The notes beneath the pieces were generated by a model. That model searched no databases. It worked only from the letters and a program-made list of their open reading frames with translations, and was not told the origin of the DNA. DNA of 64,000 bases from an uncultured Methanosarcinales archaeon (GTDB taxonomy: Archaea; Nanobdellota; Nanobdellia; Woesearchaeales; CAZYIM01). The stretch lies in contig CAZYIM010000008.1 of assembly GCA_964647565.1 (NCBI GenBank), positions 3,072 through 67,071 on the forward strand, written 5' to 3'. This document shows, piece after piece, positions 29,667 through 58,696 of this stretch. How positions within the stretch are numbered: the stretch's first letter is position 1; each line of letters begins with the position of its first letter. The position numbers were made by a program, and so were the translations under genes.

Positions 29667-29748
29667 AAAATCACAACAACATTGGCACAGACGGATTCCT
29701 TTACGGAATCCTACTTGCCTTTGGCTCGCCTGGCCATGTTGTGATTTT
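29667..29748 (-). ncRNA. Three-way-junction motif, copy 1
   Basis: Plus strand GGCACAGAC-GGATTCC/GGAATCC-TACT-GCC/GGC-CGCCTGGCC, closed by AAAATCACAACA/TGTTGTGATTTT; RNA versus DNA unresolved. Confidence 0.55.
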
Positions 29749-29821
29749 CCAGCGCTTTGGCTGCCCACGAATGTTTCTTCGATGAGTAAATATTATATAT
29801 TAGCTTTACTTCCCCTCTTCC

Positions 29822-30295
29822 ATGGAGGGTTGTACTTTTTGTGAAATCTATGAGAAGAAGGTGAATATTATCAACGAGAATGAACATTTCTATTCTAGGT
29901 TTGACCTCTTTCCAGTCTCTCCAGGTCATGTAGAAATAATCCCTAAGAAACATATTGTCTCGCTTTTGGATCTTACTAATGAAGAGTGGGCGAATCTGCA
30001 GCAAGCCATAGATCATACGTGGAAGATCGTTCAACTGGCTGACAAGGCCAAGGTCTATGAAAATCTGTTAGAGAGTCCGTATAACAAGAAATCAGAAGTG
30101 TATCTTCGATTGATGCTGGAACATCCTGCTATTGATTTAAAGCCAAGAGATTTCAACTCAGGCAATAATGATGGGCCTGCTGCTGGCAGGACAATTGACC
30201 ATCTGCATTATCACATAATTCCTAGATACGCGGGTGATATGGAGAAACCTCTTGGCGGCATTAGGAATATCATCCCTGGTATGGGTAGATATTGA
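29822..30295 (+). CDS. HIT-family hydrolase
   Basis: CTFC, PVSPGH, AAGRTIDHLHYHIIPR. Confidence 0.92.
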   Translation: MEGCTFCEIYEKKVNIINENEHFYSRFDLFPVSPGHVEIIPKKHIVSLLDLTNEEWANLQQAIDHTWKIVQLADKAKVYENLLESPYNKKSEVYLRLMLEHPAIDLKPRDFNSGNNDGPAAGRTIDHLHYHIIPRYAGDMEKPLGGIRNIIPGMGRY

Positions 30296-30372
30296 TTCTA
30301 TTGGTGGTTATTTATCTACTTCTGAGTGGTAAAAACAAAACATTTATAAACTCATTCTATTGCTTTAACATC

Positions 30373-31200
30373 ATGGTTAAAATTGAAGCTCCTTTGTTGA
30401 CAACGTATTTTGTCAGGCACCAGGAATCAGTCCAGAACAAACAAGGTTTTGGACCTTCTGATACTGATCTGACTGAGGAAGGCAAGCAAAACGTCAGGGA
30501 TATAGTCAAATTGTTCAACCATGTTGGTGTTGATAATATCGACTATATATTTTGTGGCGATCTGAAAAGACATGATCAGACGTTAAATGCACTTCTTGAT
30601 CAAATAGATTTCAAAGGACATATACGATTTGATGAAAAATTGAATGCATTCTTTAATCATCCTATGTTAGAAGGTGATCCTGAAAAGACTGAAAAAGAGT
30701 ATGATCTTGCAAGATTCAAGAGAGGAGACAATGGCCTTTACGAAATCAGATTATCTGATAATAAAACTCTCGGCTTTGATCCCCAAGGAACAGGCGTTTA
30801 TCCATTTGATCCTCTTTATTCCTGGGCGTATTTTGATAAGGATATAAGACAAGCAGTATTTCCTGATGTGCAGGATTTGGCTACGTTTGATGAAGTTGAG
30901 AGGAAGGTAAAAATGTTCCAGGCCTCATTGATTCACGAGATCAAACCTGCAAGACCGCAGAATGTGGTTGCAATCTCTTCCTGTTCGCCAAGCGGTTATA
31001 ATCTGGAATATTCTGCCTTTGAAACTATTGGTGAAAACTTGTTTGTATCTTTGGGCAGTGAGAATAATTCGATTTTCTATCAAAAACATGATGAACTGAT
31101 GATTCTTGGATATTCTCGAGAGGATTATCTTCAGAACAATGATAAACTTAGAGTAATAGAAGGAAATATAAAGATCAAGAATTTTATTAATAGAACATGA
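30373..31200 (+). CDS. Histidine phosphatase superfamily protein
   Basis: YFVRHQES, DLTEEG, DLKRHDQT. Confidence 0.75.
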   Translation: MVKIEAPLLTTYFVRHQESVQNKQGFGPSDTDLTEEGKQNVRDIVKLFNHVGVDNIDYIFCGDLKRHDQTLNALLDQIDFKGHIRFDEKLNAFFNHPMLEGDPEKTEKEYDLARFKRGDNGLYEIRLSDNKTLGFDPQGTGVYPFDPLYSWAYFDKDIRQAVFPDVQDLATFDEVERKVKMFQASLIHEIKPARPQNVVAISSCSPSGYNLEYSAFETIGENLFVSLGSENNSIFYQKHDELMILGYSREDYLQNNDKLRVIEGNIKIKNFINRT

Positions 31201-32657
31201 AGCCTTTCATCAATCTGGGTACTAGAAACAAAGGCACTTTCTGGGAATATTTGAGCGCTTATTCTTTTCGGCATACCAAACTTCCTATAACTAAATATGA
31301 AATTTCCTCGTTTCTTGGTTATGGGGCTGGCGAGCCAAACATGCATTGCCATAATAAAGATGTGATTGAGCAAACCATTAAATTGATGATGGCTGAATTC
31401 AACCAAGGCAAATACAATCAGAAATTCTTTAATATTCTGGATGCAGTCTATCGTTTGCCATATGATGATATTAAAATAAAACTGAAAACATCTCTACCTA
31501 AGAATCTGCTTGATATAATAAATCTCTTTGAGACTGTTTTCAAAGCAATGGCAGAAACTCATAAGCCCATGTTGTTGGCATTGAAATCACAATACCTGAA
31601 CAATTTTTTCCGTGAAGAACTAAAAAAGGTTTTGAGTAAGAGTGAAAAAAACAGGCTTGTTGAATATACAACACTGCTTCTTACACCAACCAAGCTAACA
31701 TTTGTTCAAATGGAAGAAACCAAATTGTTCGAGCTTCATAAAGAATTTGAAACCTTATATGAAACAAAAAGCAAATCTTTGTTTAAGGAATTTTGTCGAT
31801 TACCAAATATTCAGAAAAAATTAAAGACATTGGCTCGAAGTTATGGTTGGTTTCATATGGAATACTCTCAGTTGCCCTGGGATGTTAAAGAGCATGAAGC
31901 ACACTTATGGAACCGGATTGAAAAAAGTTCTGAAATTAAGGCGCCAGCAATTAAGATAACAGAAGCAAAACTTGCACAAAAAGAATTCTTTAAGCGACAT
32001 CCGGATTCAGAAAGATTGAAAAAATTGACTTTCGCTCTACAGGAATTCTCGATGATTCTAGACTTTTCAAAAGCAATTGTGATCCATGAGTCTTACCTTG
32101 CAAGGCCATTGTTTAATGAGATAGCAAGAAGATTAGATATTAGCTGGAATGAGCTGCTCTATTTGACCATGCCAGAGATAGTGGATCTTCTGAAGAAAGA
32201 TTGCAAGGCCGACAAGACACTAATCGCTCTGAGGAAGAAACACAGATTAGTCTTGCAGCGGGATGGCAAGATTCGTGTCTATCAGGGGCCAGAAGCATTG
32301 AAGCTTGCAGAACAGCTGATTGATGACCAATCAGATCAAGAAGAGATCCGTGGCGTTATTGGTTGCCAGGGAAAATATAAGGGTGAGGTAATAATCATTC
32401 GCTCGATAAAGGATAAAGCTAAGTTTCGCAAAGGCGCTGTCTTAGTGACACATGATGGATCTGCAGAGATGACCATGTTCCTTAAGCAGGCAGGTGCAAT
32501 TGTTACAGAACAGGGAGGTATGATCTGTCATGCTGCGATTGTTGCCAGGGAGATGAAGATTCCGTGTATTGTGGGCACTAAGAATGCAACAAAACTTCTG
32601 AAAGACGGTGACCTGGTCGAAATCGATGCGTTTAGGGGAACAGTGAAAAAGATCTGA
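31197..32657 (+). CDS. PEP-utilising mobile domain protein, second paralog
   Basis: VTEQGGMICHAAIVARE.KIPCIVGT; ATGA overlap with the phosphatase gene. Confidence 0.88.
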   Translation: MKPFINLGTRNKGTFWEYLSAYSFRHTKLPITKYEISSFLGYGAGEPNMHCHNKDVIEQTIKLMMAEFNQGKYNQKFFNILDAVYRLPYDDIKIKLKTSLPKNLLDIINLFETVFKAMAETHKPMLLALKSQYLNNFFREELKKVLSKSEKNRLVEYTTLLLTPTKLTFVQMEETKLFELHKEFETLYETKSKSLFKEFCRLPNIQKKLKTLARSYGWFHMEYSQLPWDVKEHEAHLWNRIEKSSEIKAPAIKITEAKLAQKEFFKRHPDSERLKKLTFALQEFSMILDFSKAIVIHESYLARPLFNEIARRLDISWNELLYLTMPEIVDLLKKDCKADKTLIALRKKHRLVLQRDGKIRVYQGPEALKLAEQLIDDQSDQEEIRGVIGCQGKYKGEVIIIRSIKDKAKFRKGAVLVTHDGSAEMTMFLKQAGAIVTEQGGMICHAAIVAREMKIPCIVGTKNATKLLKDGDLVEIDAFRGTVKKI

Positions 32658-32662
32658 TCACT

Positions 32663-32941
32663 TTACTTTTGCCCGCAACAGTTCTTGTTTAATGGCTTGT
32701 ATAACAATTCCCCTTTGTCGTCGACTGCTCCACATCTGGTGATCATCATGGCCATGTTTTCTTCGACAGCAACTTTAAAGAGTTTACTAGATGTTGGACA
32801 TGAACTATAAGGTGGATTATCTTTTTTCCTGTCGCAATTGTAACAGAGGCATTCTTCTCGCCTGGCCTCATCCATTTCTTTATTTGCCCAGATCTTAGGA
32901 GGAATCTCCTTTTTTGGGTTTGCAATTAATTCTATTCCCAT
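32663..32941 (-). CDS. Small Cys-rich hypothetical protein
   Basis: CLCYNC..CP..RCG; GGGGGAG SD. Confidence 0.65.
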   Translation of the reverse strand: MGIELIANPKKEIPPKIWANKEMDEARREECLCYNCDRKKDNPPYSSCPTSSKLFKVAVEENMAMMITRCGAVDDKGELLYKPLNKNCCGQK

Positions 32942-32959
32942 TTTTTAACTCCCCCACCT

Positions 32960-33694
32960 CTATTTTTTCTTAACAACCTCTCCGAAAGCATCTCCATAAA
33001 GAGTGTAACTAGTGATGCCCATAAAACCCGAGTAGATGATTGATAGTATGAAGTAGATTAAGAAAGCAAATCCAGTCCATATTAGCGGTATAGTGCCGCT
33101 GCCCATCACTATTGAGGGTAATGAGATCAGCCTATAGATTATCTGCAGTACGGTGGATCCTACAATGGAATACGCAAGGATTATCAGCCAGGCAATAAGA
33201 TATGATTGGGTGAATGCACGTTTGAAGATCAACTTAAAGTTAAATGCATCTCCAAATTTATTCTTATTGATAAAATGCATGATCGCCATTGGTGATATAT
33301 AGCCATAAAAGACAGCAAAGATCACGAAAAACAGTAACAATACAAGGAAGATCAGTATTGCAACAACTATCGTTCCAGTACCAGTTAATGTTGATGCGCC
33401 TGTGCTGAACAATTTTAGTGAGAGTACAATCACAATAGCAATTGCTATTACAATTAGTATGGGTATACAATAGATGATAAGTATTATAGAGCCTAAAAGT
33501 CCGTTTACCCAGAGCTGGCTCCAGTTTTTCCATTCTGGCAGCTCAAACTTTTTTTTCATAGCAGACTTTGCACATTCAAAAAAATATCCTATTGTCCAGA
33601 AATTAATAATTGGTAGCCAACAAAGAAGAATCGCGATCAGGAGTTTCTTGAAATCTTTTAGAGGCCTTTTTAGTGCCAGAACAATTTCAACCAT
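32960..33694 (-). CDS. DUF4013-like membrane protein
   Basis: IGY, LPEWKNW..LWVNGL, DAFNF. Confidence 0.8.
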   Translation of the reverse strand: MVEIVLALKRPLKDFKKLLIAILLCWLPIINFWTIGYFFECAKSAMKKKFELPEWKNWSQLWVNGLLGSIILIIYCIPILIVIAIAIVIVLSLKLFSTGASTLTGTGTIVVAILIFLVLLLFFVIFAVFYGYISPMAIMHFINKNKFGDAFNFKLIFKRAFTQSYLIAWLIILAYSIVGSTVLQIIYRLISLPSIVMGSGTIPLIWTGFAFLIYFILSIIYSGFMGITSYTLYGDAFGEVVKKK

Positions 33695-33757
33695 TTTGTT
33701 ATTCTTTTCCTTTGATTAATACTTTATAAAATTATCGAAACACATTCTATCAGAAAC

Positions 33758-33900
33758 GACTCTATCCAGAAAGGAGGATTTATCCCGCCTAGCGTAGCCG
33801 AGTGTTTAGGATCTGATTAAAATAGGATCGGTTTACAGTCGATAACATAATGGGTGCGAAGCGCGGGAAAATTCTCTGCGTGAGCATTCTGGACAGAGCA
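33758..33900. mobile_element. MITE family A, copy 2 (143 bp)
   Basis: Homologous to 4534-4677; direct repeat TCAGAAAC at 33750-33757 and 33901-33908. Confidence 0.88.
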
Positions 33901-34005
33901 TCAGAAACGAAAAATTTATATATATTATTTGTTAGAATCTTAGTATTGTAATGAACACGCAAAACAATTTCTGTAATTTTTATAAACAAGAAACATGTCT
34001 ATAAA

Positions 34006-34110
34006 ATGAGTCCGCTGGATGAATCCCAACCATTAGATCGATGTAAGCATTGTGGAGCAAAGATTTCTCCTGATGATGTAATCTGTCCCAAGTGTGGTGC
34101 AGATATATAG
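34006..34110 (+). CDS. Zinc-ribbon microprotein (34 aa)
   Basis: MSPLDESQPLDRCKHCGAKISPDDVICPKCGADI*; TATA ~25 nt upstream; absent from ORF track. Confidence 0.75.
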   Translation: MSPLDESQPLDRCKHCGAKISPDDVICPKCGADI

Positions 34111-34122
34111 AATTTGTTTTTT

Positions 34123-34899
34123 TTATTCTTTCTTGTCTGCTTCAGGCTTTGCATCAGCTGGTTTTCCTTCTTCAGCTTTACCTTCACCAGGAGCAGCCGC
34201 AGCTTCTTCAGCAGGCACGACCTTGTTGATGACAACCTCTGAGATTTCAGCTTCTCGCATCTTATCAACAATGGAAGACCTTGTCTTACCGGTCATAGAT
34301 GCTAGTATCTCTTTGGCTTTCTTTTCTTCTTCTTCATGTTTCTTGACAAGCTCTTCTTGGAGTTTCTTTTTCTCTTCTTCCAAAGCAGCTCTCTCTTCAT
34401 CAGACAACTCTGTCTTTTCCTCTTTGATTTCCTTGTCAAACTTACCTTCATCAATCAGCTTAAAGGCTTCAGATGCCTTGACACCTTCAACCATGATGCC
34501 CATAGAATTACAGGTTCCGACTATTTCCTTGATTTTCTCTTTCATGGTTTTTCCTAAAAGAGCGTCTTCCTTCATCTTAGCGATCTTGATAACTTGAACA
34601 ATGGCCAGGTCTGCAATAAGCTCTGATTGAGGTACTCCTGATCCTTTTTCAACGCCTGCTTCTTTCTTGATTAGTGAAGCTGCGGGTGGAGTTCCTATAG
34701 AAATCTCGAAAGCCTTGGTGTCAGAGTCTATGATGACTTTGACTGGTACCTGCATTCCCTTAAAGGCCTCGGTCTTTTTGTTTATCTCTGCAACTACTTC
34801 GCCGATATTTACGCCTTTAGGTCCTAGAGCAGGTCCTAGTGGAGGTGCAGCTGTTGCCTTTCCTCCTTCTACCAATGCTTCTACAGTTTCCTTTGCCAT
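34123..34899 (-). CDS. rpl11: 50S ribosomal protein L11 with long C-terminal extension
   Basis: VEGGKATAAPPLGPALGP, GMQVPVK, EIVGTCNSMG. Confidence 0.96.
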   Translation of the reverse strand: MAKETVEALVEGGKATAAPPLGPALGPKGVNIGEVVAEINKKTEAFKGMQVPVKVIIDSDTKAFEISIGTPPAASLIKKEAGVEKGSGVPQSELIADLAIVQVIKIAKMKEDALLGKTMKEKIKEIVGTCNSMGIMVEGVKASEAFKLIDEGKFDKEIKEEKTELSDEERAALEEEKKKLQEELVKKHEEEEKKAKEILASMTGKTRSSIVDKMREAEISEVVINKVVPAEEAAAAPGEGKAEEGKPADAKPEADKKE

Positions 34900-34947
34900 A
34901 ATAGTTCTCAGGAAAAACAGGGCATTTATAAAGGTTATGAAAACCTG

Positions 34948-35136
34948 GGCTATTATGAAAACCTCTGGATTTTTATGTTCGTCTGTGCCATTGTTGTCAT
35001 TGTTTTCGACTGAAAAGGAGAACAACAATGGAAAGGCCAGACGTAATCGACGAGGTTAAGCTATAAAATAGCTTTGTTCTCGTCGATGTAGTAGGACATG
35101 AAAATCCTAAAAGAAGTAAAGGGTTTCATAATAGCC
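34948..35136. mobile_element. MITE family B (189 bp) carrying the permuted junction motif
   Basis: TIR GGCTATTATGAAA / TTTCATAATAGCC; 9-bp direct repeat GAAAACCTG at 34939-34947 and 35137-35145. Confidence 0.85.
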
Positions 35137-35152
35137 GAAAACCTGTAACTAA

Positions 35153-36286
35153 TCATCCAAGCTTTTCTGTGATCAGACACTTGGGTTTATCAATAAAAAT
35201 GTGTGCGCATTTGTCTCCTTTTAGTTCTGATTCCAGATTGTTTCTGATTTTCCAGTATTCATCTGGAGGAAAACTTGCGTGTAGTACTGCTTTACCGTAA
35301 TTCATCTTTTCCAATTCTTCTTTTAAGTCTGTAAATATACATGATTTGATCAGTTTAAACCCTGTCAAGAAAGTATTATTTATTTGCGCATCACAGGTTA
35401 TCAAGACCTTGCCGAAGTCGAGTTTTTTTGCATTTGGAGTATTCTCTAAGGATCTTAAAAGGATGTCAAGCATATTTGCTTTAAGTATGGCTTTGTCCGG
35501 ATCATATATGAATTTCCTTGGTGTTTTTGAAAAACCTGAGCATTCTATAATTTTGCCGTCCCAGTTAAGCATTGCTTCTTCTGGTAGGGCTACTACTGAG
35601 GTCCTACACTTAGCTAGCTTACCGAAATAAGTGGTAAGTCTATTTAGAGAGTTATTAATAGATATATATTCAAGTTCACAATCTTCTGGAGGCTCTTTGA
35701 GCTGGGGTGGAAGCTCAAGTGAAAGATTGGCCTTGATTTTTTGGCTTGTGCTTAAGAGAAATCCGAGCTTGGGTGAAATGTTCTCGATATTCCTCGATTT
35801 TTCACTTGGTGCTCTTTCTGGATCACAGAATACAATATTAGCATCTTTTATCTTGCTTAGTTCTTCTTCTGCCAGCCCATGGATAAAAATAACATTATGT
35901 GATCCTGCTTGTTTGATATTAAATTTAGCATACTCTATTTTTCTTTTATCCTTCTCAATAGCATATACCTTGTCACATTTTTTTGCAAATGCAAGAGTTT
36001 GGATGCCAATTCCACATCCAACATCCACAAGGGTTTTGCACTTTAACCGTCTTGCTCTGTATTCTGCTACCAGAGGATTGGTTGCAAATCTTAGGTCATT
36101 TTTTTGATAGATAAAATTATCAGGTAGGTGTTTGGTCTTTTTTCCAATTATCCTGGCTTTGGCTATCTCATAGGCTTCTGAATCATACTCTTTTCCCAGA
36201 TTGTCAACTATCTGTTCTTGAGAATATCCTGCCCTAAGCCAATCCTCTATTCTTCTGGCTGTTTTAAGAAGAGACTTAAATCCCAT
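35153..36286 (-). CDS. Class I SAM methyltransferase with THUMP-like C-terminal domain
   Basis: RFAT..VA.YRA.R, VDVGCGIG, FCDPER, IYDPDKA. Confidence 0.8.
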   Translation of the reverse strand: MGFKSLLKTARRIEDWLRAGYSQEQIVDNLGKEYDSEAYEIAKARIIGKKTKHLPDNFIYQKNDLRFATNPLVAEYRARRLKCKTLVDVGCGIGIQTLAFAKKCDKVYAIEKDKRKIEYAKFNIKQAGSHNVIFIHGLAEEELSKIKDANIVFCDPERAPSEKSRNIENISPKLGFLLSTSQKIKANLSLELPPQLKEPPEDCELEYISINNSLNRLTTYFGKLAKCRTSVVALPEEAMLNWDGKIIECSGFSKTPRKFIYDPDKAILKANMLDILLRSLENTPNAKKLDFGKVLITCDAQINNTFLTGFKLIKSCIFTDLKEELEKMNYGKAVLHASFPPDEYWKIRNNLESELKGDKCAHIFIDKPKCLITEKLG

Positions 36287-36330
36287 AAGGTATGGTCAAG
36301 ATATTTGGATTAAAAAAGTTATTGATTATG

Positions 36331-36473
36331 GGCTCTGTTCAGCAAGGAGGATTTATCCTGCCTAGCGTAGCCAAGTGTTTAGGATCTGATTAAAATAGAA
36401 TCGGTTTACAGCAGATAACATAATGGGTGCGAAGCGCGGGAAAATTCTCTGCAAAATCATTCTGGACCGAGTC
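36331..36473. mobile_element. MITE family A, copy 3 (143 bp)
   Basis: Homologous to the other two copies; flanks TGATTATG (36323-36330) and TGATTATC (36474-36481). Confidence 0.85.
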
Positions 36474-36517
36474 TGATTATCGATACATTTTTATTATCTT
36501 ATTTAATTCTCAGATTC

Positions 36518-36706
36518 ATGGTTGTGCTTGAGGATAACGGCCGATGTGTGATTCGCTATGAACAGGGTTGGATGAAAGCCAGCTACCATACTATCGGTAA
36601 AGAGACTATTGATGATAACACCAGACTCCAAGCAGCTAAAATGATGATTTATTCTTCAATCAAGCTATTGTTGGGTGCTTATACTGATCGCATCAACCAT
36701 GATTAA
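36518..36706 (+). CDS. Small hypothetical protein
   Basis: 62-aa ORF filling the gap, TATA-like sequence upstream. Confidence 0.4.
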   Translation: MVVLEDNGRCVIRYEQGWMKASYHTIGKETIDDNTRLQAAKMMIYSSIKLLLGAYTDRINHD

Positions 36707-36748
36707 AGATTGACAAACTTTAAAAGATAATTAATCTTTCTTAGGTGC

Positions 36749-37615
36749 ATGAAAGTTCTTATCCTTGGAGGTAGCGGATATCTGGGTTCTAAGCTTATGG
36801 AAAAATGGAAGAATAGGCATGATGTATTGGGTACCTATTTTAACAATGAACATGAGGGCTTGGTGGAATTAGATATTCGAGATAAAGACCGGTTGGTCAG
36901 GACAACAGTCGGTTTTAAGCCAGACATCATTGTGAACACCTCTGCTTTTTCAAGTGTTGATTTCTGTGAAGATCATCCTAAAAAAGCATTAGATCTCAAC
37001 ACAAAAGCTGTAAGGACATTGTCAGATCTTTGTGAGTATGATGGTATTAAATTGATCCACATCTCGTCAGGTTCTATTTTTAAGGGTGATGTTGGCAACT
37101 ATTCTGAGAATGACCTTCCTGATCCTATAAATACGTATGGATTAACAAAGGGTCTTGCTGACAGGCATCTGATAGAAAAAAATGATAACTATATCATTGC
37201 CAGAGTCAGTCTGTTATATGGTCATAAGGATCCTGAAGGTAAGAAATTTGCAGATTGGATATTGAATAATTTACGCAATGGAACTGAACTTGACCTCGCT
37301 GTCGATACTTTTTGCAGTCCAGGTGTTACAGAAGATGTTGCGAGTGCTCTTGAAACCCTTATAGACAAGGGAAGAACAGGGATATACAATATTGCTGGCC
37401 CTGAAATAATAAGCAAGTATGATTTTGCCATTAAGATTGCACAAATATATGGTCTGAATGAGAATCTGATAAAACCCATTAAACAAGCAGACTTAAGGGG
37501 ATTAGCTCCCAGGGCTGCAGATGTTTCATTAAACATCAATAAATTGACTTTAGAAGGGATCAAGATGCGAAATATTTATGAAGGTATTAATTTTATGAAA
37601 GATTGTGGGGTGTGA
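36749..37615 (+). CDS. rfbD: dTDP-4-dehydrorhamnose reductase family SDR
   Basis: GGSGYLG, PINTYGLTK (YxxxK). Confidence 0.85.
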   Translation: MKVLILGGSGYLGSKLMEKWKNRHDVLGTYFNNEHEGLVELDIRDKDRLVRTTVGFKPDIIVNTSAFSSVDFCEDHPKKALDLNTKAVRTLSDLCEYDGIKLIHISSGSIFKGDVGNYSENDLPDPINTYGLTKGLADRHLIEKNDNYIIARVSLLYGHKDPEGKKFADWILNNLRNGTELDLAVDTFCSPGVTEDVASALETLIDKGRTGIYNIAGPEIISKYDFAIKIAQIYGLNENLIKPIKQADLRGLAPRAADVSLNINKLTLEGIKMRNIYEGINFMKDCGV

Positions 37616-37617
37616 AC

Positions 37618-37920
37618 ATGGAAACGAATGATAAAGATTTTGAGACTGACATTAACAAAGGTAAGGTGATAGTGGATTTCTGGGCTTCATGGTGTTTTCC
37701 GTGCAGGGCCTTTGGGCCTGTTTTTGAGGAGACCTGTAAGGATTATGAGGATATTAAGTTTCTTAAGATGAACACAGAGGATAATCCAGATACTGCAACC
37801 AAGCTTAATGTGATGAGCCTGCCTACAATAATATTCTTTAAGGATGGCCAGGAAGTTAAACGCGAAGTTGGATTGCAGTCAAAGGACGCATTTAAAAGCC
37901 TCATTGAGGAAGCATTCTGA
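37618..37920 (+). CDS. trxA: Thioredoxin
   Basis: VDFWASWCFPC, VMSLPT. Confidence 0.92.
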   Translation: METNDKDFETDINKGKVIVDFWASWCFPCRAFGPVFEETCKDYEDIKFLKMNTEDNPDTATKLNVMSLPTIIFFKDGQEVKREVGLQSKDAFKSLIEEAF

Positions 37921-38687: not shown

Positions 38688-38714
38688 ATATAATAGAAGT
38701 TCTTTAAAAGTAAT

Positions 38715-39005: not shown

Positions 39006-39087
39006 AAAACTAAATCATTTCTAAATTACTCCTTTTTAGTGGTGAAGATTAGAAAATTTTATATAAGGATAATGAATACTACTACAC

Positions 39088-40257: not shown

Positions 40258-40259
40258 AT

Positions 40260-45610: not shown

Positions 45611-45634
45611 AAAACTAGGAAATAGGTGATTATT

Positions 45635-49632: not shown

Positions 49633-49676
49633 TGCCTTTATTTCTTCTTTTTTCATATACTAAATTATAGTCTAGA

Positions 49677-49748
49677 GTCCCGAATGGTTCCGCAATCATT
49701 GATTGCTTGTCATCTGAGGGACTCAATATTGAGATGATCGTTGACTGA
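49677..49748 (+). pseudogene. Diverged remnant of an rps10 3' end
   Basis: Reads RVPNGSAIIDCLSSEGLNIEMIVD* versus rps10 [17 protein letters not shown], with mostly synonymous codon differences. Confidence 0.6.
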
Positions 49749-49910
49749 GCTTGTCTATGGCAACCTCAAAAACATTGTTATGTTTTTGTTGGTATATAAA
49801 GTTGAGCTTTATATGCCCCAAAATATTTATTTAACAAATTTCTCGTGTAGGAGTAATTCTTTATTTTTTTCTATTAAATATTTAAACATAATTAGATTAC
49901 CCCTTATAAA

Positions 49911-50495: not shown

Positions 50496-50579
50496 GGAAG
50501 TGACAGGAGATACTTAGATTGCTCTGAGGAATTGTTGTTCTGGGTAAACTTTTTAATATTAGTTGTTTTTCTTTTTCTC

Positions 50580-51987
50580 ATGGTGAAAGTTCTTTTCATC
50601 CAGAATATTCAGAGGGAACATTATGCAGTCATGCTTTTATCTGCAGTATTGTTGAAATACGGACATGAGACAGATTTAGTTCTAGGCAGTTTTAAAGAAA
50701 TAAGGTGCAAAATCAGGAGCTATAAACCTGATTTGATTACTATATCTGCAATGTATCCTGAGAAGGCTTGGGTCGAAAGGGTATGTAGATATATCAAGAG
50801 GTTTGTGAATATTCCTATTGTGGTGGGCGGAGCAATTGCAATGTCAACACCAGGTCTTGTAAATGATCCGAATATTGATGCATTGGTCTGTGGGGAAGGC
50901 GAAAAAGCTGTTGTGGCAATTGCAGATAGGATACATACGGGCAGGGATCTAACTAACATACACAATGTGTTGCTCGAGCTCAGCTCTGCGAAAATCCCTG
51001 CTAAACATGCAGTCGTGGCTGATCTGGATGGCTTGCCCTTTGCGGACAGAGTACATCTACGCCAGGAATAAGGGTGTAGACCCGTTCAATGTTCCTTCCT
51101 TTGAAGGATCTAGAGGATGTCCGTTCTGCTGTACTTTCTGTATGTATAATCAACTGAAGTTAAAACATAGCTATCCGATCCAAACAAGAAGAAAGGCGGT
51201 TGAGAATATTATTCAAGAGCTTAAATCAGTCAAGGCAAAGCAAAATCCGAGGATGCTGCGGTTTATCGACAGCATTTTTACCTCAGATAGAAAATGGCTG
51301 TTAGCTTTCCTTAAACGTTATAGATGTGAGATTGATATTCCCTTTATTTGCGATGCACATTTTAACCTTCTGGATGAGGAGATTATTATGGAACTTAAAT
51401 CCGCTAACTGTCACAACCTAATGCTGGGCATAGAGTCTGGAAATGATTTTGTCAGAAATAATGTTCTTGGAAAGAAAATCGAGGCCTCTCGTATACTTGC
51501 CATTTCTAAGCTGTTGCAAAAACATAATCTGGCATTTGGGTCTTTGAACATGATGGGCATGCCTGAAGAGAGATTTTATCAGGCTATCCAGACTATTCGC
51601 ATAAATCAGAAGATCCGGCCAGACTACCTTTTCGTCGAGTTATTTATGCCATATCCTGGTCTCGATATAACTAAACGTGCTTTGGCAAAGGATTTGCTGG
51701 ATGATGAAAAACTTACCTTGTTGTCTTCCAGGAAACATAAGATGATGCGAAGCCTGCTTTCACAAAAAGACATATGTAAGGTTTCCAATCTCCACAAGTT
51801 CTCAATCTGGCTTGTCCGATTCCCTTTCCTCGAACCTTTGGTTCGTTTCTTGGTTCTTCTTCCAGAAAACAGGATTTTTGATTATCTATACGCGTTTTCT
51901 TTGTATGTAGAATTTAAAAAATATTCAGGATTCAGTTTTTTTAAGACCTTGAGTGCTGCTTTCAGGAATTTCAAAGCATTAAACTGA
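50580..51987 (+). pseudogene. B12-binding radical SAM gene split by a frameshift at ~51050
   Basis: First frame ends DLDGLPFADR, second continues EYIY..SRGCPFCCTFC; adding 2 nt (AG) restores DREYIY. Confidence 0.8.
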
Positions 51988-52032
51988 TCGGTGTTGTGTT
52001 ACGGCTGGCATATCAGTGAGCGGACATAATGA

Positions 52033-52305
52033 TCATTTCTTTCTTGGATCATATTTTTTGTATTGGCAGCCATCCTTTTCTACAATCCAGACTGGATCAC
52101 CATGATCTTGTCCGAACCAAGGCACAATCTTGTAGGTTAGTTTATAGGCTTCTGGAAAGTCTATGAAATCAAAAATATGGCATTCAATCACATCCTTGGC
52201 TTTTTCTACTGAACTGCTTAGAATGGGTTTGCGCCCTCCGAGAATGCCAGAAGAATTCTCTATATCAGGATCTCCAACAATAATTGCATATAGGTCGTCT
52301 GCCAT
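52033..52305 (-). CDS. Hypothetical protein
   Basis: 90-aa ORF, co-oriented with its neighbour. Confidence 0.55.
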   Translation of the reverse strand: MADDLYAIIVGDPDIENSSGILGGRKPILSSSVEKAKDVIECHIFDFIDFPEAYKLTYKIVPWFGQDHGDPVWIVEKDGCQYKKYDPRKK

Positions 52306-52312
52306 CTTAGAA

Positions 52313-52654
52313 CTATATTAAATCACTGAACATGTCGTTGAAATAGGCTTTTCTGTAGGTCTCTTTTACTGGATCATGATCTGGTAGTTCAGATTCTTTG
52401 ATGATAAAATATCCCATATCGAGCATCTGGCCAAGGATGGTGTTCAATGTGTTTTTCTCACCGCCCACTTGGTTTCGGACCATGATTGGCAGGTTAAATG
52501 CCTCTAGAAAGGTTTCTTGTGCTGATTTCAACATATTAGCATCAACATCATTTGTTTTTCTTGCTTCTAATAGTTTGTGATAGGTCTGGTTTACCTTTTC
52601 ATTAAGTTGTTCAGCTTGTTTATATAGGTCCGATTGCTGGTTTATTTCAGCCAT
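52313..52654 (-). CDS. Hypothetical protein
   Basis: 113-aa ORF, TATA upstream. Confidence 0.6.
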   Translation of the reverse strand: MAEINQQSDLYKQAEQLNEKVNQTYHKLLEARKTNDVDANMLKSAQETFLEAFNLPIMVRNQVGGEKNTLNTILGQMLDMGYFIIKESELPDHDPVKETYRKAYFNDMFSDLI

Positions 52655-52747
52655 ACAGATTAGAAATGTACTTGCATATAAAATAGTTATGTATTTTTAC
52701 CTATAAAATTCAAAAAATTTAAAAATTAAAGTAATCATTAATTTTAT

Positions 52748-53077
52748 ATGGGTGTTTCAGAAAGGACATTAGAAGAGGACGAGGCCAAGATAGACAATAT
52801 ATTGCATAAGATTCTAAAACTTAATGAGAAGATTGAGTTTCTCTCTAAGCAGGCAGATGAGGCGAGTGAAAAGAAGTTTGTTCGGGAAAGGATGAGGATG
52901 ATCAACATCATGACTCAGACTGTACACAATCTTGCCTGGCTAGCTGATGATATCGAGCTCAAGGACATGGAACTTACCAAGGAACTTGAGACTAAGATAA
53001 AGGACCGGCTCAGATCAGCTATTACCAATATCAACAAGGCTACTGAGATGTTTGGCAAGGAAGAGGGAAATATTTAG
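52748..53077 (+). CDS. Coiled-coil hypothetical protein
   Basis: 109-aa helical ORF. Confidence 0.6.
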   Translation: MGVSERTLEEDEAKIDNILHKILKLNEKIEFLSKQADEASEKKFVRERMRMINIMTQTVHNLAWLADDIELKDMELTKELETKIKDRLRSAITNINKATEMFGKEEGNI

Positions 53078-53107
53078 CGAGTCTTTCCAGAGCCATAAAG
53101 AGGTTAT

Positions 53108-56100
53108 ATGATTAAAAATCATGTTTATTCTTTGTCTGTCGTGGCGATTGTTGCATTGGTTGCAATTGTCGTAATGATAATTCAATCGATCTACAATCCT
53201 GTTTATCCTAACTTTGACAAGACTCTTGCAGGCCAGGCTTATAGTGATGGGAATGTTCCTGATCAAACAGGCCCCTTTTCAGGGCATGTACAAGAGATTC
53301 ATTTGGATAAGCGTCAGATATATCTGATTTCGTTTAATGTCCTGCCAGAGGATACACGCATTTCAAATGTATTTAAAGAACATCTGGGTGATATCATTTT
53401 TCAATCAGCAGATAGAAGCCAGACTTATTCTGGCGAAGAAAATATAGACTTTAAACAACCATACTTGATCTATCCAAAAAGCACTCCATTAACAATAGAA
53501 ATAACAGGTAAAAAAGTGGTGGCAGATTATGTTTTTAGGTTAAATAAAGGTACGAATTATCTTGCATATCCTTTAGATGTTGAAGTCAGTACTGATGAAT
53601 TCTTTGAGGAGTTTAAAGAAAAAATATTGTTAGTCAAGGATAGTCATGGGACGACATATATCCCTGGTTATAATCTGGATACACTGAAAGTCATTAAGCC
53701 CGGCGATGGCTATTATGTTGAAATGCTGTCAGAGGCAGAGATAGATTTTGGTGATTATCTTCCTGATTGTGGAGATCAATCCGGAATAATTTGCAGTAAA
53801 AACAAGATCTGCGAAGGGGACATAGTGGAGGCAAGTGATACAGAAGAATGCTGCATGGGAACATGCGCCCTGCCTAAACTCGAAGATACAATAACCGTAT
53901 ATGTCAGCAGTATGCCTTCAAATATTATTTGTGCAAATCAAATGGACGGACCGCATAAAGCAGAACTTACATTGACTGGTACATCTAAAACAGATCCTCG
54001 ATTCACAGTTGAAGCCAAAGTTTCGTACGAATCTCAAAACAGATTTCATTCAGACACCATAAAAAATCTTAATGGTGAGTGGATAATTGATGATATTGAA
54101 TATTCTCCAAATAACTTTGATTCCCCAATTCTTATCGCTACAGAAATTGACTATCCGGGTTTGTCAGAATGCCTTGCAGTTCAAACTCAAGGTGAAGAAT
54201 ATATGATGGATTGGCACATCTCAGGTATGGCAACTCCTAGTGTAAAACCCGTATTATTGCCAAGGTTAATGTCAAAACCCTTTGCAGGAAACAAGAAGAT
54301 TTTGGTAATCAAAGGAAGACACACTCCTGAATATGATCCTGATGCCTACCCCTATCTGAATAATGCTGAATACTATCAAAACCTGTTTGATTATTTTTCT
54401 CTTGCAATGAAACGAATGTCTGACAACCAACTAAATTTGAACTATGAATTCAAGGAAGCTTTTTATGAGATTCCGTTTGAAAACCCGTCTGAAGTTGACT
54501 GTCTTGGAGACAACCAGTGCAAGACAGAACTGACCAGGAATTTGTTGACAGACCTGGGAATAACTGAAGACAATTATATGGATGATGACTATGACATGAT
54601 TTTTATCACATTCTACTATTCTATGATACAACAATTCAAGCGAAATGCATATATGTCTGGCTCAGTAGTATACAGAGAAGGCTGCCCCCAGTGTGAATGG
54701 GTGTCATTCAATCCTGATGTAAGTCAGAACCTTCCTAACTTCATACACGAATTAGGACATACTTTTTTCAGTCATCCTGTTATGCGCCACAGCATACCTG
54801 ATGGTTCTCCAGACAAAGTAACGGATATACACTTAGGATTAGATGGAACTAAGGGATTTTATGATCCTGAAAAACCAACATGGTATGCACATCCTTATGC
54901 TATGGGCCAAGGTGGTTTGCGATTTAATCTTTTGCATCAAGCTGCTCTTGGTTGGCTTAAAGGTTCTCAGGTAACAACAATCACAGAATCAGGAGTGTAT
55001 GATGTATATTCAGACAATCCTGATATGACTTCTGATCCTGCAAAGCCATTAATCCTTCAAATTTTAGTACATTACCAAGGAAAACCTGTCTATGTGTATA
55101 TAACTCTTCCAAACATCGAATTCACTGAACCTTTTAAGGGAACCTCACCTATGCCCTGGGAATATACAGAGTACAGTAGCATTGAAAGTAACCTTGCAGA
55201 TCACCTTCGCAAGGGCATCCAGCTTTGGTCTGTTCCACTTAGGTCTGATTACCACACCCATGGCCATACAGCCCATTTATACAGTTACAATAATGACCAA
55301 GAATACTATCTTGACTTTTGGGATAGTGCAATTCTACCTGGAAAAGAAGTCCATCTGCAATGGGAAGGAACTGATCTTATTCTTAGGAATATTGAACGTA
55401 ATGGAAACCATGCAAAGGTTGAGGTGATCTATGATCCAGTTCCGTTGATTTGTTCAGACCAATCAGGAGTGATCTGCGCGAGTAATGAGATTTGTGATGG
55501 AGAGACAGTAGAAGCTGGCGACACAGCTGAATGCTGCATGGGAACATGTAAAGAGGCACACAAAACATTATTCATACTTGCAGAGTTTATTGGACAACCT
55601 ATTGTCAGCATGGCTGATACTGAAAAAATGGTATCTATGTTCGAGGATTACATGAAGGAGAACTCTTATGGTAAATATCTGATTGACAGTGAGATCCTTG
55701 GCCCTTACCAGATTGATGTTGATATCTGTGAGTTGAAGAATAACAGGCAGGAAATAGTCAGGCTGGCTTTGGCTGCTGCAGACCAAGAATATCATATAGA
55801 TGATGATGTGAATGTTGTTGTGATACACAATCAGGGCAATGACTGCCTGATACACGGAGGAGAAGCCTATTCTTATAAAACATATAACATACCACGGCCT
55901 GTAAATATCAACCCTATACGCGTCAACCCAGGGGCTTTTAAATCTTATATTGAAATCGCGGTTCATGAATTTGGTCATGCCTTGACATTGCCTGATCAGG
56001 GCATTGGGCATCCTAGCGGCATATATTGTCCGCTTGAGGGGAGGAATGATGTCCTTCTGAGCAATTCCTGTATTTCTGGTCTTGGAAGTAATTTTGAATT

Positions 56101-56587
56101 TGGTCCGATGGGTAAAGGCGGTTTACTCCAATTGCCTCTTCCACATTATAGGGCTTGTGTAAAATTAAGAAAAGGATTCCTGACAGAAGAGGATTTCATT
56201 GTATCTGACCAGGGAACTCACACCATCATCCCCATTGAAAGCCAGAGTGCAGGAAAGAAATTAATTATTATCCCTGTTCCACAGATTTTTAATACAGTCA
56301 GCACCAATTATGGATATGACTTTAATGATATTGGCAATATAACTCTGGAGTTCAGGGAACCAGACAAGATATTAACACATGTACTGTATGTTATTGAGCA
56401 TGATCCTGGTGGCTGGGGCTGCAACAGGGTTTTAGCAGAATACGACAGACTCTGGGCAAATCCTGCTTCTCTTGAGGTTGGAAAAACTTATTATATTAAC
56501 AATAATGGAGTAGATGAGATATCGATCACAGTCAATGAGATTGTAAATAATGACCACGCATCGATAACTGTGAATCGGCTTGTGTGA
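53108..56587 (+). CDS. Large membrane-anchored protein with two zinc metalloprotease domains (M6/M11-like)
   Basis: N-terminal TM; IHELGH and VHEFGH, each followed by a distal His and a Met-turn-like MG; duplicated 6-Cys module at 53768-53866 and 55451-55549. Confidence 0.8.
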   Translation: MIKNHVYSLSVVAIVALVAIVVMIIQSIYNPVYPNFDKTLAGQAYSDGNVPDQTGPFSGHVQEIHLDKRQIYLISFNVLPEDTRISNVFKEHLGDIIFQSADRSQTYSGEENIDFKQPYLIYPKSTPLTIEITGKKVVADYVFRLNKGTNYLAYPLDVEVSTDEFFEEFKEKILLVKDSHGTTYIPGYNLDTLKVIKPGDGYYVEMLSEAEIDFGDYLPDCGDQSGIICSKNKICEGDIVEASDTEECCMGTCALPKLEDTITVYVSSMPSNIICANQMDGPHKAELTLTGTSKTDPRFTVEAKVSYESQNRFHSDTIKNLNGEWIIDDIEYSPNNFDSPILIATEIDYPGLSECLAVQTQGEEYMMDWHISGMATPSVKPVLLPRLMSKPFAGNKKILVIKGRHTPEYDPDAYPYLNNAEYYQNLFDYFSLAMKRMSDNQLNLNYEFKEAFYEIPFENPSEVDCLGDNQCKTELTRNLLTDLGITEDNYMDDDYDMIFITFYYSMIQQFKRNAYMSGSVVYREGCPQCEWVSFNPDVSQNLPNFIHELGHTFFSHPVMRHSIPDGSPDKVTDIHLGLDGTKGFYDPEKPTWYAHPYAMGQGGLRFNLLHQAALGWLKGSQVTTITESGVYDVYSDNPDMTSDPAKPLILQILVHYQGKPVYVYITLPNIEFTEPFKGTSPMPWEYTEYSSIESNLADHLRKGIQLWSVPLRSDYHTHGHTAHLYSYNNDQEYYLDFWDSAILPGKEVHLQWEGTDLILRNIERNGNHAKVEVIYDPVPLICSDQSGVICASNEICDGETVEAGDTAECCMGTCKEAHKTLFILAEFIGQPIVSMADTEKMVSMFEDYMKENSYGKYLIDSEILGPYQIDVDICELKNNRQEIVRLALAAADQEYHIDDDVNVVVIHNQGNDCLIHGGEAYSYKTYNIPRPVNINPIRVNPGAFKSYIEIAVHEFGHALTLPDQGIGHPSGIYCPLEGRNDVLLSNSCISGLGSNFEFGPMGKGGLLQLPLPHYRACVKLRKGFLTEEDFIVSDQGTHTIIPIESQSAGKKLIIIPVPQIFNTVSTNYGYDFNDIGNITLEFREPDKILTHVLYVIEHDPGGWGCNRVLAEYDRLWANPASLEVGKTYYINNNGVDEISITVNEIVNNDHASITVNRLV

Positions 56588-56611
56588 TTAATTTTAAGAA
56601 TTATTAGTTGG

Positions 56612-56709
56612 TTTTCTTTATTTTGGCTACAAAAAAACCTTGTCACTTTGTTCCTTGAGTTTTTTCGTGCGTATCTATATTTTCTTTATTTTGGCTACAA
56701 AAAAACCTT
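56612..56709. repeat. 30-bp direct repeat of the RsmB-family gene 3' end around a 38-bp insert
   Basis: TTTTCTTTATTTTGGCTACAAAAAAACCTT at 56612-56641 and 56680-56709. Confidence 0.92.
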
Positions 56710-57625
56710 CTGTGTCGTTGTCCTGGGGGTAGATTCTTAGGCAATGCTTAACAGACGGATGGATATCTATGTTCTCCCATTTTGTGATCGGGTCTGACTG
56801 CTTTATTTTCAGTTTTATTGGCATCAACTTGGCGTTATCAAAGTTTTTTAGTAAGCTGCTGACCATGCCTTCATCTTCAAGAGGCTCAAGGGTGCAGGTT
56901 GAGTATACCAAGGTTCCGCCTGGCTTGAGTACTTTGAATCCTGATTCTAGTAATCTCGACTGTAGTCCTGCCATTTGTTTGACTGAGTTGGGAGACCACA
57001 TTTTCAGGGTTTTTAGGGATCTTCTGATAGTGCCAGTTGCACTGCAGGGTGCATCTACAAGCACTTTATCAAACTCTGTTTTCTTGAACCAGTTTCCAGA
57101 CATCTGTGTTAGGATGGCATTGTGTACTCCGCATCTTTCCATGTTAAGGCCAAGAGCCTTTATCCGGTCGCCCAGTAGTTCATTGGAAATAAGAAGTCCC
57201 TTATTTTTCATCATGCCTGCGATTTGGGTTGATTTTGAGCCTGGAGCTGCACACATATCCAGAACCATTTCATCTGGCTTGGGATCCAGGACAACAGGAG
57301 GTATCATGGATGCAGCATCCTGCACATAGATATAGCCGAGATTGTGTTCTGGTGTGTTGCCAATGTCAAATCGTTTCTTGTCTTTGTATTCTATCCAAAA
57401 ACCCTCTTTGCACCAGGGAACTGGGATTAGCTTCCAGTTTCTAGAAAGACGTTTCTTTAGATTGGGGATAGGGATCTTCAGAGTGTTGACCCGGATGCAT
57501 TTTCTGATGTATGATAATGAGTATTCCATGAACTCATCATATCTATTTCCAAGAAGCTGCTTGTAATGTTCAACAAACTTATCCTTGATCTCAATCTTTT
57601 CACGGTCAGGGATTGGTTCTAACAT
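56675..57625 (-). CDS. RsmB/NOP2-family RNA m5C methyltransferase
   Basis: QDAASM, LDMCAAPGSK, LVDAPCS, VYSTCT, GFFVA. Confidence 0.96.
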   Translation of the reverse strand: MLEPIPDREKIEIKDKFVEHYKQLLGNRYDEFMEYSLSYIRKCIRVNTLKIPIPNLKKRLSRNWKLIPVPWCKEGFWIEYKDKKRFDIGNTPEHNLGYIYVQDAASMIPPVVLDPKPDEMVLDMCAAPGSKSTQIAGMMKNKGLLISNELLGDRIKALGLNMERCGVHNAILTQMSGNWFKKTEFDKVLVDAPCSATGTIRRSLKTLKMWSPNSVKQMAGLQSRLLESGFKVLKPGGTLVYSTCTLEPLEDEGMVSSLLKNFDNAKLMPIKLKIKQSDPITKWENIDIHPSVKHCLRIYPQDNDTEGFFVAKIKKI

Positions 57626-57626
57626 T

Positions 57627-58490
57627 TTAATATAGAAAAAGTATATTATTAAATGTTTTTTGGAAACTTTGGAGATTTTTTTTCTCAGGTAGTCGCGGGT
57701 CTAGATAAAATGGATTGATTTCTGATTTCAAATAGGCTATTGAAACTTCAAGCTGGTAATTCTCATCCATCTGCTTTTGCCTTTCCAAGATTCCTGGAAA
57801 TCTCTTGGTTACGTTCCTATTGATCCCATCTGGCAAGGGTTGGATATAAGTTGAGTACAGGTTTTCAGCAGCAGCCACATATCTTTGTTTCATGGTTTCT
57901 AAAGAGTCTGCTATCGTAGTAATTTTACCAATATCTAAATCCAATACGGGGATTCCTGCGTCTATCAGACTAAGAAGAATTGATGAAAAGCTGTTGGTGC
58001 CTCTGGAGTAGAAATCAGTTGTGAATTTTATCTTGTTTACAAGAGCATCTATCTGGATCGTTTCATAATTATTTGATATTGGTGTGTCGACAGATACAAG
58101 AGCTTTGATATCCTTAGCTTGATACTTGTTCATCCTTATGCAGCCATGGCTCATGGCATAGCCAAGGGTGTAATCCTCGTGAAAACCGTGTACTGCAAAT
58201 GCTGCCTTTCTGTTTTCATCAAACACAAGTACTGTGCCGGAATATGCTCCGCCTGTATCTTCAATACGGATTATCTTATAATCGCCGATTGGTGTTGGAG
58301 TGGACGGCTTGCCTACTGCAATCTTGTGATGGCTTACAAGTGAGTCGTTCTTGAAGAACTCCAGTTGGAACTTAGGGATATTTGTGGTTATCTTATAGGA
58401 ATCTTTTTTTGGTTTATCCTGAGCAAATCCAGTACCTAATGATAACATAGAGAAAAGAAAGGTGAAAGCTGCGGTCTTCCATCGCTTCAT
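57627..58490 (-). CDS. Secreted L,D-transpeptidase (YkuD-domain) protein
   Basis: Signal peptide; IAVGK..TPTP.G, VHG and SHGCIRM catalytic motif. Confidence 0.9.
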   Translation of the reverse strand: MKRWKTAAFTFLFSMLSLGTGFAQDKPKKDSYKITTNIPKFQLEFFKNDSLVSHHKIAVGKPSTPTPIGDYKIIRIEDTGGAYSGTVLVFDENRKAAFAVHGFHEDYTLGYAMSHGCIRMNKYQAKDIKALVSVDTPISNNYETIQIDALVNKIKFTTDFYSRGTNSFSSILLSLIDAGIPVLDLDIGKITTIADSLETMKQRYVAAAENLYSTYIQPLPDGINRNVTKRFPGILERQKQMDENYQLEVSIAYLKSEINPFYLDPRLPEKKNLQSFQKTFNNILFLY

Positions 58491-58558
58491 ACTGTTTTTA
58501 AGAATAACTACTATTTAAACCTTAGGGATAGGAGATGAGACCTTTTTTAAATCAAATT

Positions 58559-58696
58559 AAATAATAAGCATTCATACATGGCACAGACGGCCAAATAAAG
58601 ATTTGTCCTACTCGGCTAAAGCCTCGCCTGGCCATGGTTCGCAAGCTTCTTTGCGAACCCGAGAACAAACGAAGTGACCATGAATGCTTATTATTT
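58559..58696 (-). ncRNA. Three-way-junction motif, copy 2, inside a 17-bp perfect inverted repeat
   Basis: Core 58577-58636; extra hairpin GGTTCGCAA/TTGCGAACC; outer AAATAATAAGCATTCAT/ATGAATGCTTATTATTT. Confidence 0.55.

Follow-up and report, generated by a model that had tools for sequence, protein, structure and literature searches.

A folded three-way-junction element of Woesearchaeota archaea that occurs in two circularly permuted layouts

Background

Self-cleaving ribozymes typically occur in many copies with a patchy spread and no gene association, accept optional insertions in their stems and are found in circularly permuted forms. The core of the hammerhead has an invariant unpaired CUGANGA before stem II, the tandem G8 A9 / G12 A13, a GAAA strand, the pair A15.1-U16.1 and an unpaired H17 at the cut site. 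The repetitive extragenic palindromic (REP) substrates of RAYT carry an invariant GTAG at the foot of a hairpin, and folded single-stranded DNA (REP sequences, IS200/IS605 ends, attC sites) also accommodates G.T wobbles, bulges and mismatches. To our knowledge self-cleaving ribozymes are little known in archaea, and few structured non-coding families have been described for DPANN archaea. Here we analyze a short folded element that resembles each of these systems in part and is present three times in a 64,000-nucleotide stretch of DNA (the window) of an uncultured archaeon of the order Woesearchaeales (GenBank assembly GCA_964647565.1, contig CAZYIM010000008.1, positions 3072-67071; contig C8 below). 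The genome to which it belongs (G000) is 2.68 Mb in 86 contigs, with 87% completeness and a GC content of 0.38.

The element is a three-way junction of helices P1, P2 and P3, in most copies inside an outer stem, P0. In the linear layout P1 is the open helix, and in the permuted layout P3 is. The explanation that we favor, and think slightly more probable than not, is that these sequences are an undescribed family restricted to Woesearchaeota, whose junction fold is selected in two permuted layouts, an RNA module that rides on mobile DNA and whose junction has two states. The preliminary description of the window, made from the sequence alone, did not recognize the motif, and it does correspond to no Rfam family, either in the window or in 17 copy-bearing loci at E<=5-10. 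The scan of the window at the gathering score returned only a tRNA (6957-7043), and the hammerhead models matched neither the window at that score nor the 17 loci at E<=10 or E<=5. No published description of the family was found in the portions of the literature on DPANN ribozymes, structured RNA, miniature inverted-repeat transposable elements (MITEs) and archaeal permuted ribozymes that were available to us.

The three copies in the window

The motif had been placed at 29684-29735 and 58580-58633 (minus strand) and, with its parts in permuted order, at 34967-35107 (plus strand), and the described sequences are present at all three sites. The 9-mer GTCTGTGCC has three exact occurrences in the window, all at these sites, and GGCCAGRCG has exactly four, three of them there. 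A covariance model finds both linear copies at E ~1e-16 and no other match in the window at E<=1. The features are as follows:

29666..29748, minus strand: linear copy 1, whole hairpin (outer stem P0 plus core); minimum-free-energy (MFE) fold a three-way junction, -38.4 kcal/mol, z -7.1
29736-29748 (A-run) and 29666-29683 (T-run), minus strand: P0 arms of copy 1; the 3' strand has extra unpaired bases
29684..29735, minus strand: core three-way junction of copy 1, with P1 (8 bp, bulged U), GA, P2 (3 bp), AAGUA and P3 (7 bp); 64.1 bits, E 9e-17
34939..34947, no strand: left 9-bp target-site duplication GAAAACCTG, 9/9 identical and flush with the inverted repeat
34948..35136, plus strand: P3-open (permuted) copy, a MITE of 189 bp whose terminal inverted repeats start GGCTATTATGAAA
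34967..34980, plus strand: P3 5' half of the permuted copy, open helix, pairing with 35094-35107 (10/10 pairs)
34981..34989, plus strand: P1 3' strand of the permuted copy, GTCTGTGCC
34990..35034, plus strand: hairpin closing P1 of the permuted copy, like a closed P0 shell (ATTGTTGT / ACAACAAT)
35035..35045, plus strand: P1 5' strand GGCCAGAC and junction GUA of the permuted copy
35046..35087, plus strand: P2 of the permuted copy, long form, a 9-bp stem with an inner hairpin
35088..35107, plus strand: junction GUAGUA and P3 3' half of the permuted copy
35137..35145, no strand: right 9-bp target-site duplication GAAAACCTG
58559..58697, minus strand: linear copy 2 in full, including P0 (arms at about 58680-58697 and 58559-58575)
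58580..58633, minus strand: core three-way junction of copy 2; 64.7 bits, E 6e-17
58636..58660, minus strand: extra hairpin of copy 2 between the P0 5' arm and P1, a 5' extension common to four other copies in the genome

The MFE fold of the permuted copy (-80.6 kcal/mol, z -12.8) shows this junction too, closed at P1 and open at P3, so the permuted order holds; in that of copy 2 the outer stem and P1 are recovered and P2 is not. Folding energies favor the motif strand over its complement (-38.4 against -33.7 kcal/mol and -57.2 against -47.6 kcal/mol, differences of 4.7 and 9.6). Each copy does lie in its own inverted-repeat shell, as had been noted, and the shell of the permuted copy proves to be a transposon end. 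The exchange of GCC/GGC for GGC/GCC in P2, the differing P3, the fixed junction bases and the strand-specific G-T pairs claimed for these sites are all borne out, not only here but across 59 copies from about 30 genomes.

Read from the sequence, each copy in the window stands directly upstream of an apparent TATA-like box of the next gene. At the permuted copy this is the gene for ribosomal protein L11 (minus strand; apparent start 34897-34899, TATA-like box 34925-34934), and the MITE is inserted 13 bp past the box. The L11 frame from this apparent start has about 258 codons, more than Pfam L11 domains require.

The fold is supported by covariation and is made by one strand

Two alignments were analyzed, one (A1) made with MAFFT from 16 minimal copies, and one (A3) of 59 linear copies, 23 from the genome studied and the remaining 36 from 27 further members of the order (one row is from the unpublished genome G131). 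In A1 94.4% of cells are paired and 11 of the 19 pairs have double changes, which none of 500 shuffles equaled, and controls in which the structure was slid gave 33–44%; compensation from A-U to G-C is seen within P1. The larger alignment gives nearly the same values (94.6% of cells paired, double changes in 15 of 19 pairs, 0/500 shuffles equal, slid controls 34–44%). All three helices are thus backed by covariation. Among the 1111 cells of A3 there are 65 G-U or U-G wobbles and 9 A-C or C-A combinations, and this large excess means that the same strand folds everywhere.

The departures from perfect pairing are themselves regular. The 3' strand of P1 has a single bulged base, usually U, in the 59 copies, and the third pair of P3 is non-canonical, mostly A.G, in 25 of them. 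Outer inverted repeats with an exact match of 7 nucleotides or more surround 46 of the 59 copies, and in every one of them additional bases shift the 3' arm (by +4 in 27, +3 in 15, another value in 4, never 0), a conserved bulge on the same strand.

The commonest P2 outside the genome studied is a conserved module of about 25 nucleotides in which a G-run, a C-run and a second G-run follow one another (loci L031-L034, L036, L038, L043, L047, L050 and others); it has no Rfam match. In it the change of the C-run hairpin from CCCC/GGGG to CUCC/GGAG goes with a change of the upstream G-run from GGGG to AGGG, which hints at a purine triple or a pseudoknot.

A nearly invariant junction with two mutually exclusive pairings

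The positions that are nearly fixed in the 59 copies lie in the junction: G13 and A14 before P2, G90 and A91 after it, A94, G95, and G139, U140 and C141. Columns 13, 14, 90 and 91, which form a tandem G.A flanking P2, are G in 57/59, A in 45/59, G in 55/59 and A in 54/59, respectively; A94 is present in 59/59, and G139, U140 and C141 in 58/59 each. The third strand reads GAGUA, GAAUA or GAGCA, and the C of the invariant GUC is paired with an invariant G (G-C in 58/58 cells).

The P1 5' strand ends in two bases that are purine-pyrimidine in every copy and able to pair with the invariant G139-U140. The third strand is a second possible partner for them: for the alternative pairs 10-93 and 11-92 all 118 of 118 cells are paired (0/500 shuffles equal), with the states C-G 45 and U-A 14 at 11-92 and G-U 27, A-U 25 and G-C 7 at 10-93. 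Since two mutually exclusive 2-bp pairings are both kept, we read this as a two-state junction, and the pairing pattern suggests that it may switch between two conformations. The changes themselves are compensated, in that G92 is A in 14/59 copies and U93 is C in 7/59, and the end of P1 changes to match in every case. The preliminary description had likened the GTAG here to the foot of REP hairpins; its G and T vary in step with the end of P1, so they reflect base pairing and not a fixed recognition word. One subfamily of 14 of the 59 copies reads CAGAUGA-P2-GAAUA...GUC.

The permuted copies are MITEs

Permuted copies were searched for by pattern, with a reversed pattern as control, as MAFFT misaligned the 3' halves of their two types. 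The pattern has 25 matches in 9 of 151 genomes (reversed control 0), and 5 of these 9 genomes have no detected linear copy. The permuted and linear copies share the same junction and the same base signature in P3; the P3, P2 and closing hairpin of the permuted copies differ in sequence yet still pair.

The permuted copy of the window has perfect 12-nucleotide terminal inverted repeats and a perfect, flush 9-bp direct repeat, GAAAACCTG, and in a near-identical twin on contig 40 the 9-bp repeat is another one. Fifteen permuted copies, 5 from the genome studied and 10 from 8 others, were tested for a flush 9-bp repeat (at least 7/9 identical) beside inverted repeats (at least 9/12, starting GG); 10 of the 15 have them, as against 2 of 15 in the reversed control. 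Only 1 of the 59 linear copies passes the same test; the intergenic DNA around these copies is too diverged between species pairs for their ends, or any short duplication, to be placed to the base. The open P3 is made by the inverted repeats of the MITE or by sequence immediately within them, and a hairpin that looks like a closed shell caps P1. Of the refuting outcomes named at the outset, a match to the end of an insertion sequence (IS) applies to half of the structure: the outer shell of the permuted copies is a MITE end with a 9-bp duplication, whereas the junction is not such an end.

A resident IS with similar ends lies at C3:36514-37403. It is 890 bp long, carries a DDE_Tnp_1 gene between a perfect 9-bp target duplication, GTTTTTTAT, and is the only such IS in the genome; its ends start GGTTGTGTAGAAAAA / GGTTGTGTAGAAAA. 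One end is identical to the second MITE type at 14 of 16 positions, a match that holds for one of the two types. We take the permuted copies to be MITEs of an IS4/IS5-type DDE insertion sequence. Inside the right end of the resident IS there is a small hairpin, GTCTGG..CCAGAC, like the inner part of P1, and the open frame of the IS extends through this end. The linear model found nothing in 8 IS loci and 10 permuted loci except one 9-bit chance match, and a search for long elements ending in the two junction halves gave noise only. Across the genomes the DDE family and the element are weakly associated (17 of 29 element-bearing genomes, 41 of 122 others).

Copies, types and context in the genome studied

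An absence of further copies had been named as a refuting outcome; about 35 copies were found in this genome by pattern scans and the covariance model together. They comprise 29 linear copies (27 found by pattern, 2 added by the model) and 6 permuted ones; these numbers, and those below, are lower bounds as the genomes are metagenome-assembled genomes (MAGs). The linear copies include 16 minimal ones of 52–56 nucleotides, about 8 with a long irregular P2 hairpin (85–90 nucleotides), 4 with a complex P2 (137–197 nucleotides), 3 of these also with a 5' extension, and two weaker copies. The six permuted copies are of two types, and one is truncated by a contig end. The P2, P3 and shell types are found in varying combinations, so the arms act as exchangeable modules. 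At copy C3:4636-4687 one shell type stands at the core and the 5' arm of another about 35 nucleotides farther out, with no matching 3' arm within 130 nucleotides; the element is possibly nested in the remains of another.

The GC content of the copies is 0.5–0.67. By crude open reading frame calls all are intergenic, 18 of 27 between tandem, 8 between divergent and 1 between convergent genes, and the downstream gene is co-oriented in 19 of the 27. No shared neighboring gene family of the kind expected of a riboswitch or cis-regulatory leader was found; among the proteins checked, 10 in the window and 10 from 6 other genomes, the neighbors differed from each locus to the next. A T-run follows the core at 9–40 nucleotides in 19 of 23 copies of this genome, but over all copies in 36/59 versus 28/59 in the control, so it is not a general feature.

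ARAGORN found two tRNAs in 31 loci, neither overlapping a copy, and one copy in the genome studied lies about 230 nucleotides from a tRNA. The tRNA of the window at 6957-7043 (plus strand) is 87 nucleotides long (Rfam 42 bits); ARAGORN gives it a four-base anticodon, 'gtgg', and it probably contains an intron. Across the whole genome ARAGORN reports only 18 tRNAs, 9 of them longer than 95 nucleotides with introns.

Distribution, turnover and persistence

A first model had matches in 8 of 40 relatives. A broader one matched 28 of 150 further members of the order (each of a different family or genus), with between 1 and 21 matches per genome, often at contig ends. In a draw of genomes at the level of the phylum all ten positive genomes besides the one studied fall in the same order. 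The exact pattern, run over 185,579 species genomes (one per species), gave 57 stretches, 51 of them in four MAGs that bear the title Candidatus Woesearchaeota, 3 in one with the title Nanoarchaeota and 3 in two with the title uncultured Methanosarcinales; it had no match in viral contigs.

Sites are both gained or lost and retained. Between two genomes of the same family, G020 and G147, a pair of elements of about 200 bp stands between two syntenic genes in one and is absent from the other. For two named Woesearchaeota MAGs with genes about 80% identical, the loci examined include two sites that carry the element in only one of the MAGs and four orthologous sites that carry it in both; at two of these four the cores are 53/53 and 56/57 identical, and at the other two P2 and P3 are compensated or replaced. 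At one orthologous intergenic site (L094 5921-5993 and L119 6133-6199) the element is about 80% identical and inverted relative to the flanking genes, an inversion in place that would be expected from recombination between the element's own inverted arms. A search for close strains in which empty sites could be mapped found, for the ELP3 neighbor, only relatives of 34–55% identity (metagenome contigs), none with the element, and G137, a genome of the same genus as G004, had no match to locus L034.

Pairs of copies in head-to-head orientation, 30–80 bp apart, are found in the genome studied, in G020 (two), in G070, in G131 and in one named Woesearchaeota MAG. They suggest that the neighborhood of the 5' end of an existing copy is a preferred place of insertion. 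Those located precisely, all minus then plus and mostly with differing P2 types, are:

G000:C19:8319-8499
L029 1501-1647
L037 1501-1717
L054 1501-1703
L094 812-981

Comparison with known systems and alternative explanations

In the explanation that we favor one strand folds into P1 with its bulged U, a tandem G.A beside a variable P2, GUA, a variable P3 and the invariant GUC, and this fold is under selection in two circularly permuted DNA layouts. The P1-open copies are hairpin-capped inserts without target duplications, gained and lost between related species with some persisting, and the P3-open copies are MITEs of an IS4/IS5-type DDE insertion sequence whose terminal inverted repeats make the open P3. 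The data show the family and its distribution, the fold and its strand, the permutation and the MITE nature; the action in RNA and the switch are inferred from them. The DDE enzyme needs duplex ends only, so the junction should be kept for something else, and as it persists both with the DNA ends in P0 and with the DNA ends in P3, and irrespective of the way in which the DNA moves, we infer that it is needed in the transcript. There it might be a processing, stability or termination signal that makes insertions beside promoters tolerable, a protein-binding module or a catalytic RNA, and it may switch between two conformations through its alternative 2-bp pairings.

The permuted copies resemble the prokaryotic MITEs that have structured transcripts (Correia/CREE, ERIC, RUP, BOX and, in archaea, the Sulfolobus MITEs) in being gene-free, with inverted repeats, 9-bp duplications and a resident IS with similar ends. 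They differ from them in that the interior is a deeply conserved, covarying junction that is also present in non-MITE copies of the other permutation, the linear copies being without duplications.

Several observations weigh against an RNA module in two layouts. The alignment A3 was fitted to the model structure and is hence biased towards it, and the covariation at 11-92 has two states only, which could reflect few events or one inherited by a subfamily. Wobbles, bulges and mismatches equally suit folded single-stranded DNA. Four runs of the same studies gave no RNA coverage of window positions 28000-37000, and the head-to-head cores leave little promoter room per element. Of the 9 genomes that have permuted copies, only 4 gave a match to the DDE family itself (PF01609).

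The first alternative is a new class of small self-cleaving ribozyme, perhaps akin to the hammerhead, that would have the junction as its core and would cut read-through transcripts; we consider this unlikely. The copy number, patchy spread, lack of gene association, insertion-tolerant variable stems and natural permutation are those of such ribozymes as described above. With the hammerhead in particular the element shares a three-way junction, the tandem G.A on the middle stem and the GUC after the third stem, the subfamily of 14 copies differs by few bases from the hammerhead core strands, and a two-state junction would be compatible with a docking or rearrangement step. On the other hand few bases are both unpaired and conserved. 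The CU of the hammerhead CUGA strand is absent, and the places of C3 and U4 are occupied by P1 pairs that covary (columns 6-144: CG 46, GC 6, AU 2, UA 2, UG 2; columns 8-142: AU 40, CG 9, GC 7, UA 2), so the element is not a hammerhead. It has in addition extra third-strand bases (GAGUA/GAAUA) and a paired C in GUC, and no Rfam ribozyme model matches even at E<=10. The wider form of this idea, that the junction is the active core of a new hammerhead-like self-cleaving class or else a two-state RNA switch, spread in DPANN archaea on two kinds of mobile DNA, seems to us just as doubtful.

The main alternative that does not involve RNA is that the linear copies are moved by a recombinase or transposase whose substrate is the fold as formed by single-stranded DNA, by analogy with REP/RAYT, IS200/IS605 ends, attC sites and phage attachment hairpins; we judge it improbable, somewhat more so than a ribozyme. 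It would account for the strand-specific wobbles, the conserved bulges of 1 and of 3–4 nucleotides on the same strand, the lack of target duplications in linear copies, the differences in presence among relatives and the one copy inverted in place. Like REP, BIME and REPIN sequences the copies are short, intergenic, strand-specific folded repeats present in tens, often as inverted, BIME-like head-to-head pairs. They differ in being a three-armed junction with an invariant interior and not a simple hairpin, in having a permuted layout and in a GTAG that varies by compensation. The Y1-HUH (PF01797) and reverse transcriptase (PF00078) genes that had been proposed as partners did not turn up: PF00078 has no match in the genome studied, and PF01797 none there or in G020, which is 99% complete and has 15 copies. 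Y1 is found in 14 of 29 element-bearing and 42 of 122 other genomes. TnpB (PF07282) and the IS110 DEDD transposase (PF01548) likewise have no match in the genome studied, so the genes expected to accompany a retroelement-borne RNA, a TnpB omega-RNA or an IS110 bridge RNA were not found there. Furthermore, it is the internal junction and not the ends that is most conserved, and the junction is also kept in MITEs that are moved as double-stranded DNA by a DDE enzyme. Integron attC sites offer a parallel in their one-strand fold, extrahelical bases, variable tips and structure conserved above sequence, but the shells of the element have no consistent R''/R' box or any other box in common, there is no cassette array beside an integrase, and the conserved part is the interior junction. 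Two other known motifs were also considered and rejected, the K-turn because the 3-nucleotide strand is on the wrong side, and the bulge-helix-bulge splice motif because both bulges are on one strand.

Each copy could instead be a gene in its own right for a small RNA that binds a cellular protein through its paired ends and junction, as Y RNA binds Ro60 or as other scaffold RNAs do; the case for this is weaker still, and we think it quite unlikely. The paired 5' and 3' ends, which form a long stem with conserved bulges, and the variable distal module are like those of Y RNA, the T-runs in the genome studied could end archaeal transcription, the copies are GC-rich for their genome, and some orthologous copies have identical cores. 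However, the element is mobile and multi-copy, with filled and empty sites, and is present in a minority of related genomes in widely varying number, its head-to-head pairs lack promoter space, and the T-run is not general. Ro/TROVE (PF05731) was found in 2 of the 151 genomes, neither of which bears the element.

That the copies are no more than DNA palindromes and inverted repeats of transposons, with covariation due to matched ends and descent and no functional fold, is very improbable: P0 and P1 do look like long imperfect inverted repeats, the copies in any one genome share ancestry and the permuted ones are plainly MITEs, but this leaves unaccounted for the excess of G-U over A-C, the bulges on the same strand (the 3' arm being offset by 2–6 nucleotides in all 46 cases), the unpaired junction bases that are invariant across families, the replacement of P2 and P3 by unrelated sequences that still pair, and the same junction in two layouts.

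Implications

As the family has hundreds of copies, strong covariation, a small and nearly invariant junction and natural permutations, it could be put to a direct test with a transcript of 52 nucleotides. A single folded module that is selected on two vehicles, a DDE-type MITE and a duplication-free hairpin insert, makes the function of the fold separable from the movement of its DNA, and the family may serve as a model of how RNA modules are acquired and shuffled in small genomes. If the ribozyme reading were true, it would be an archaeal ribozyme class with natural P1-open and P3-open permutations. If the fold merely marks a mobile repeat, it would still be a useful marker of genome dynamics in the Woesearchaeota, and a cause of breaks in their assemblies.

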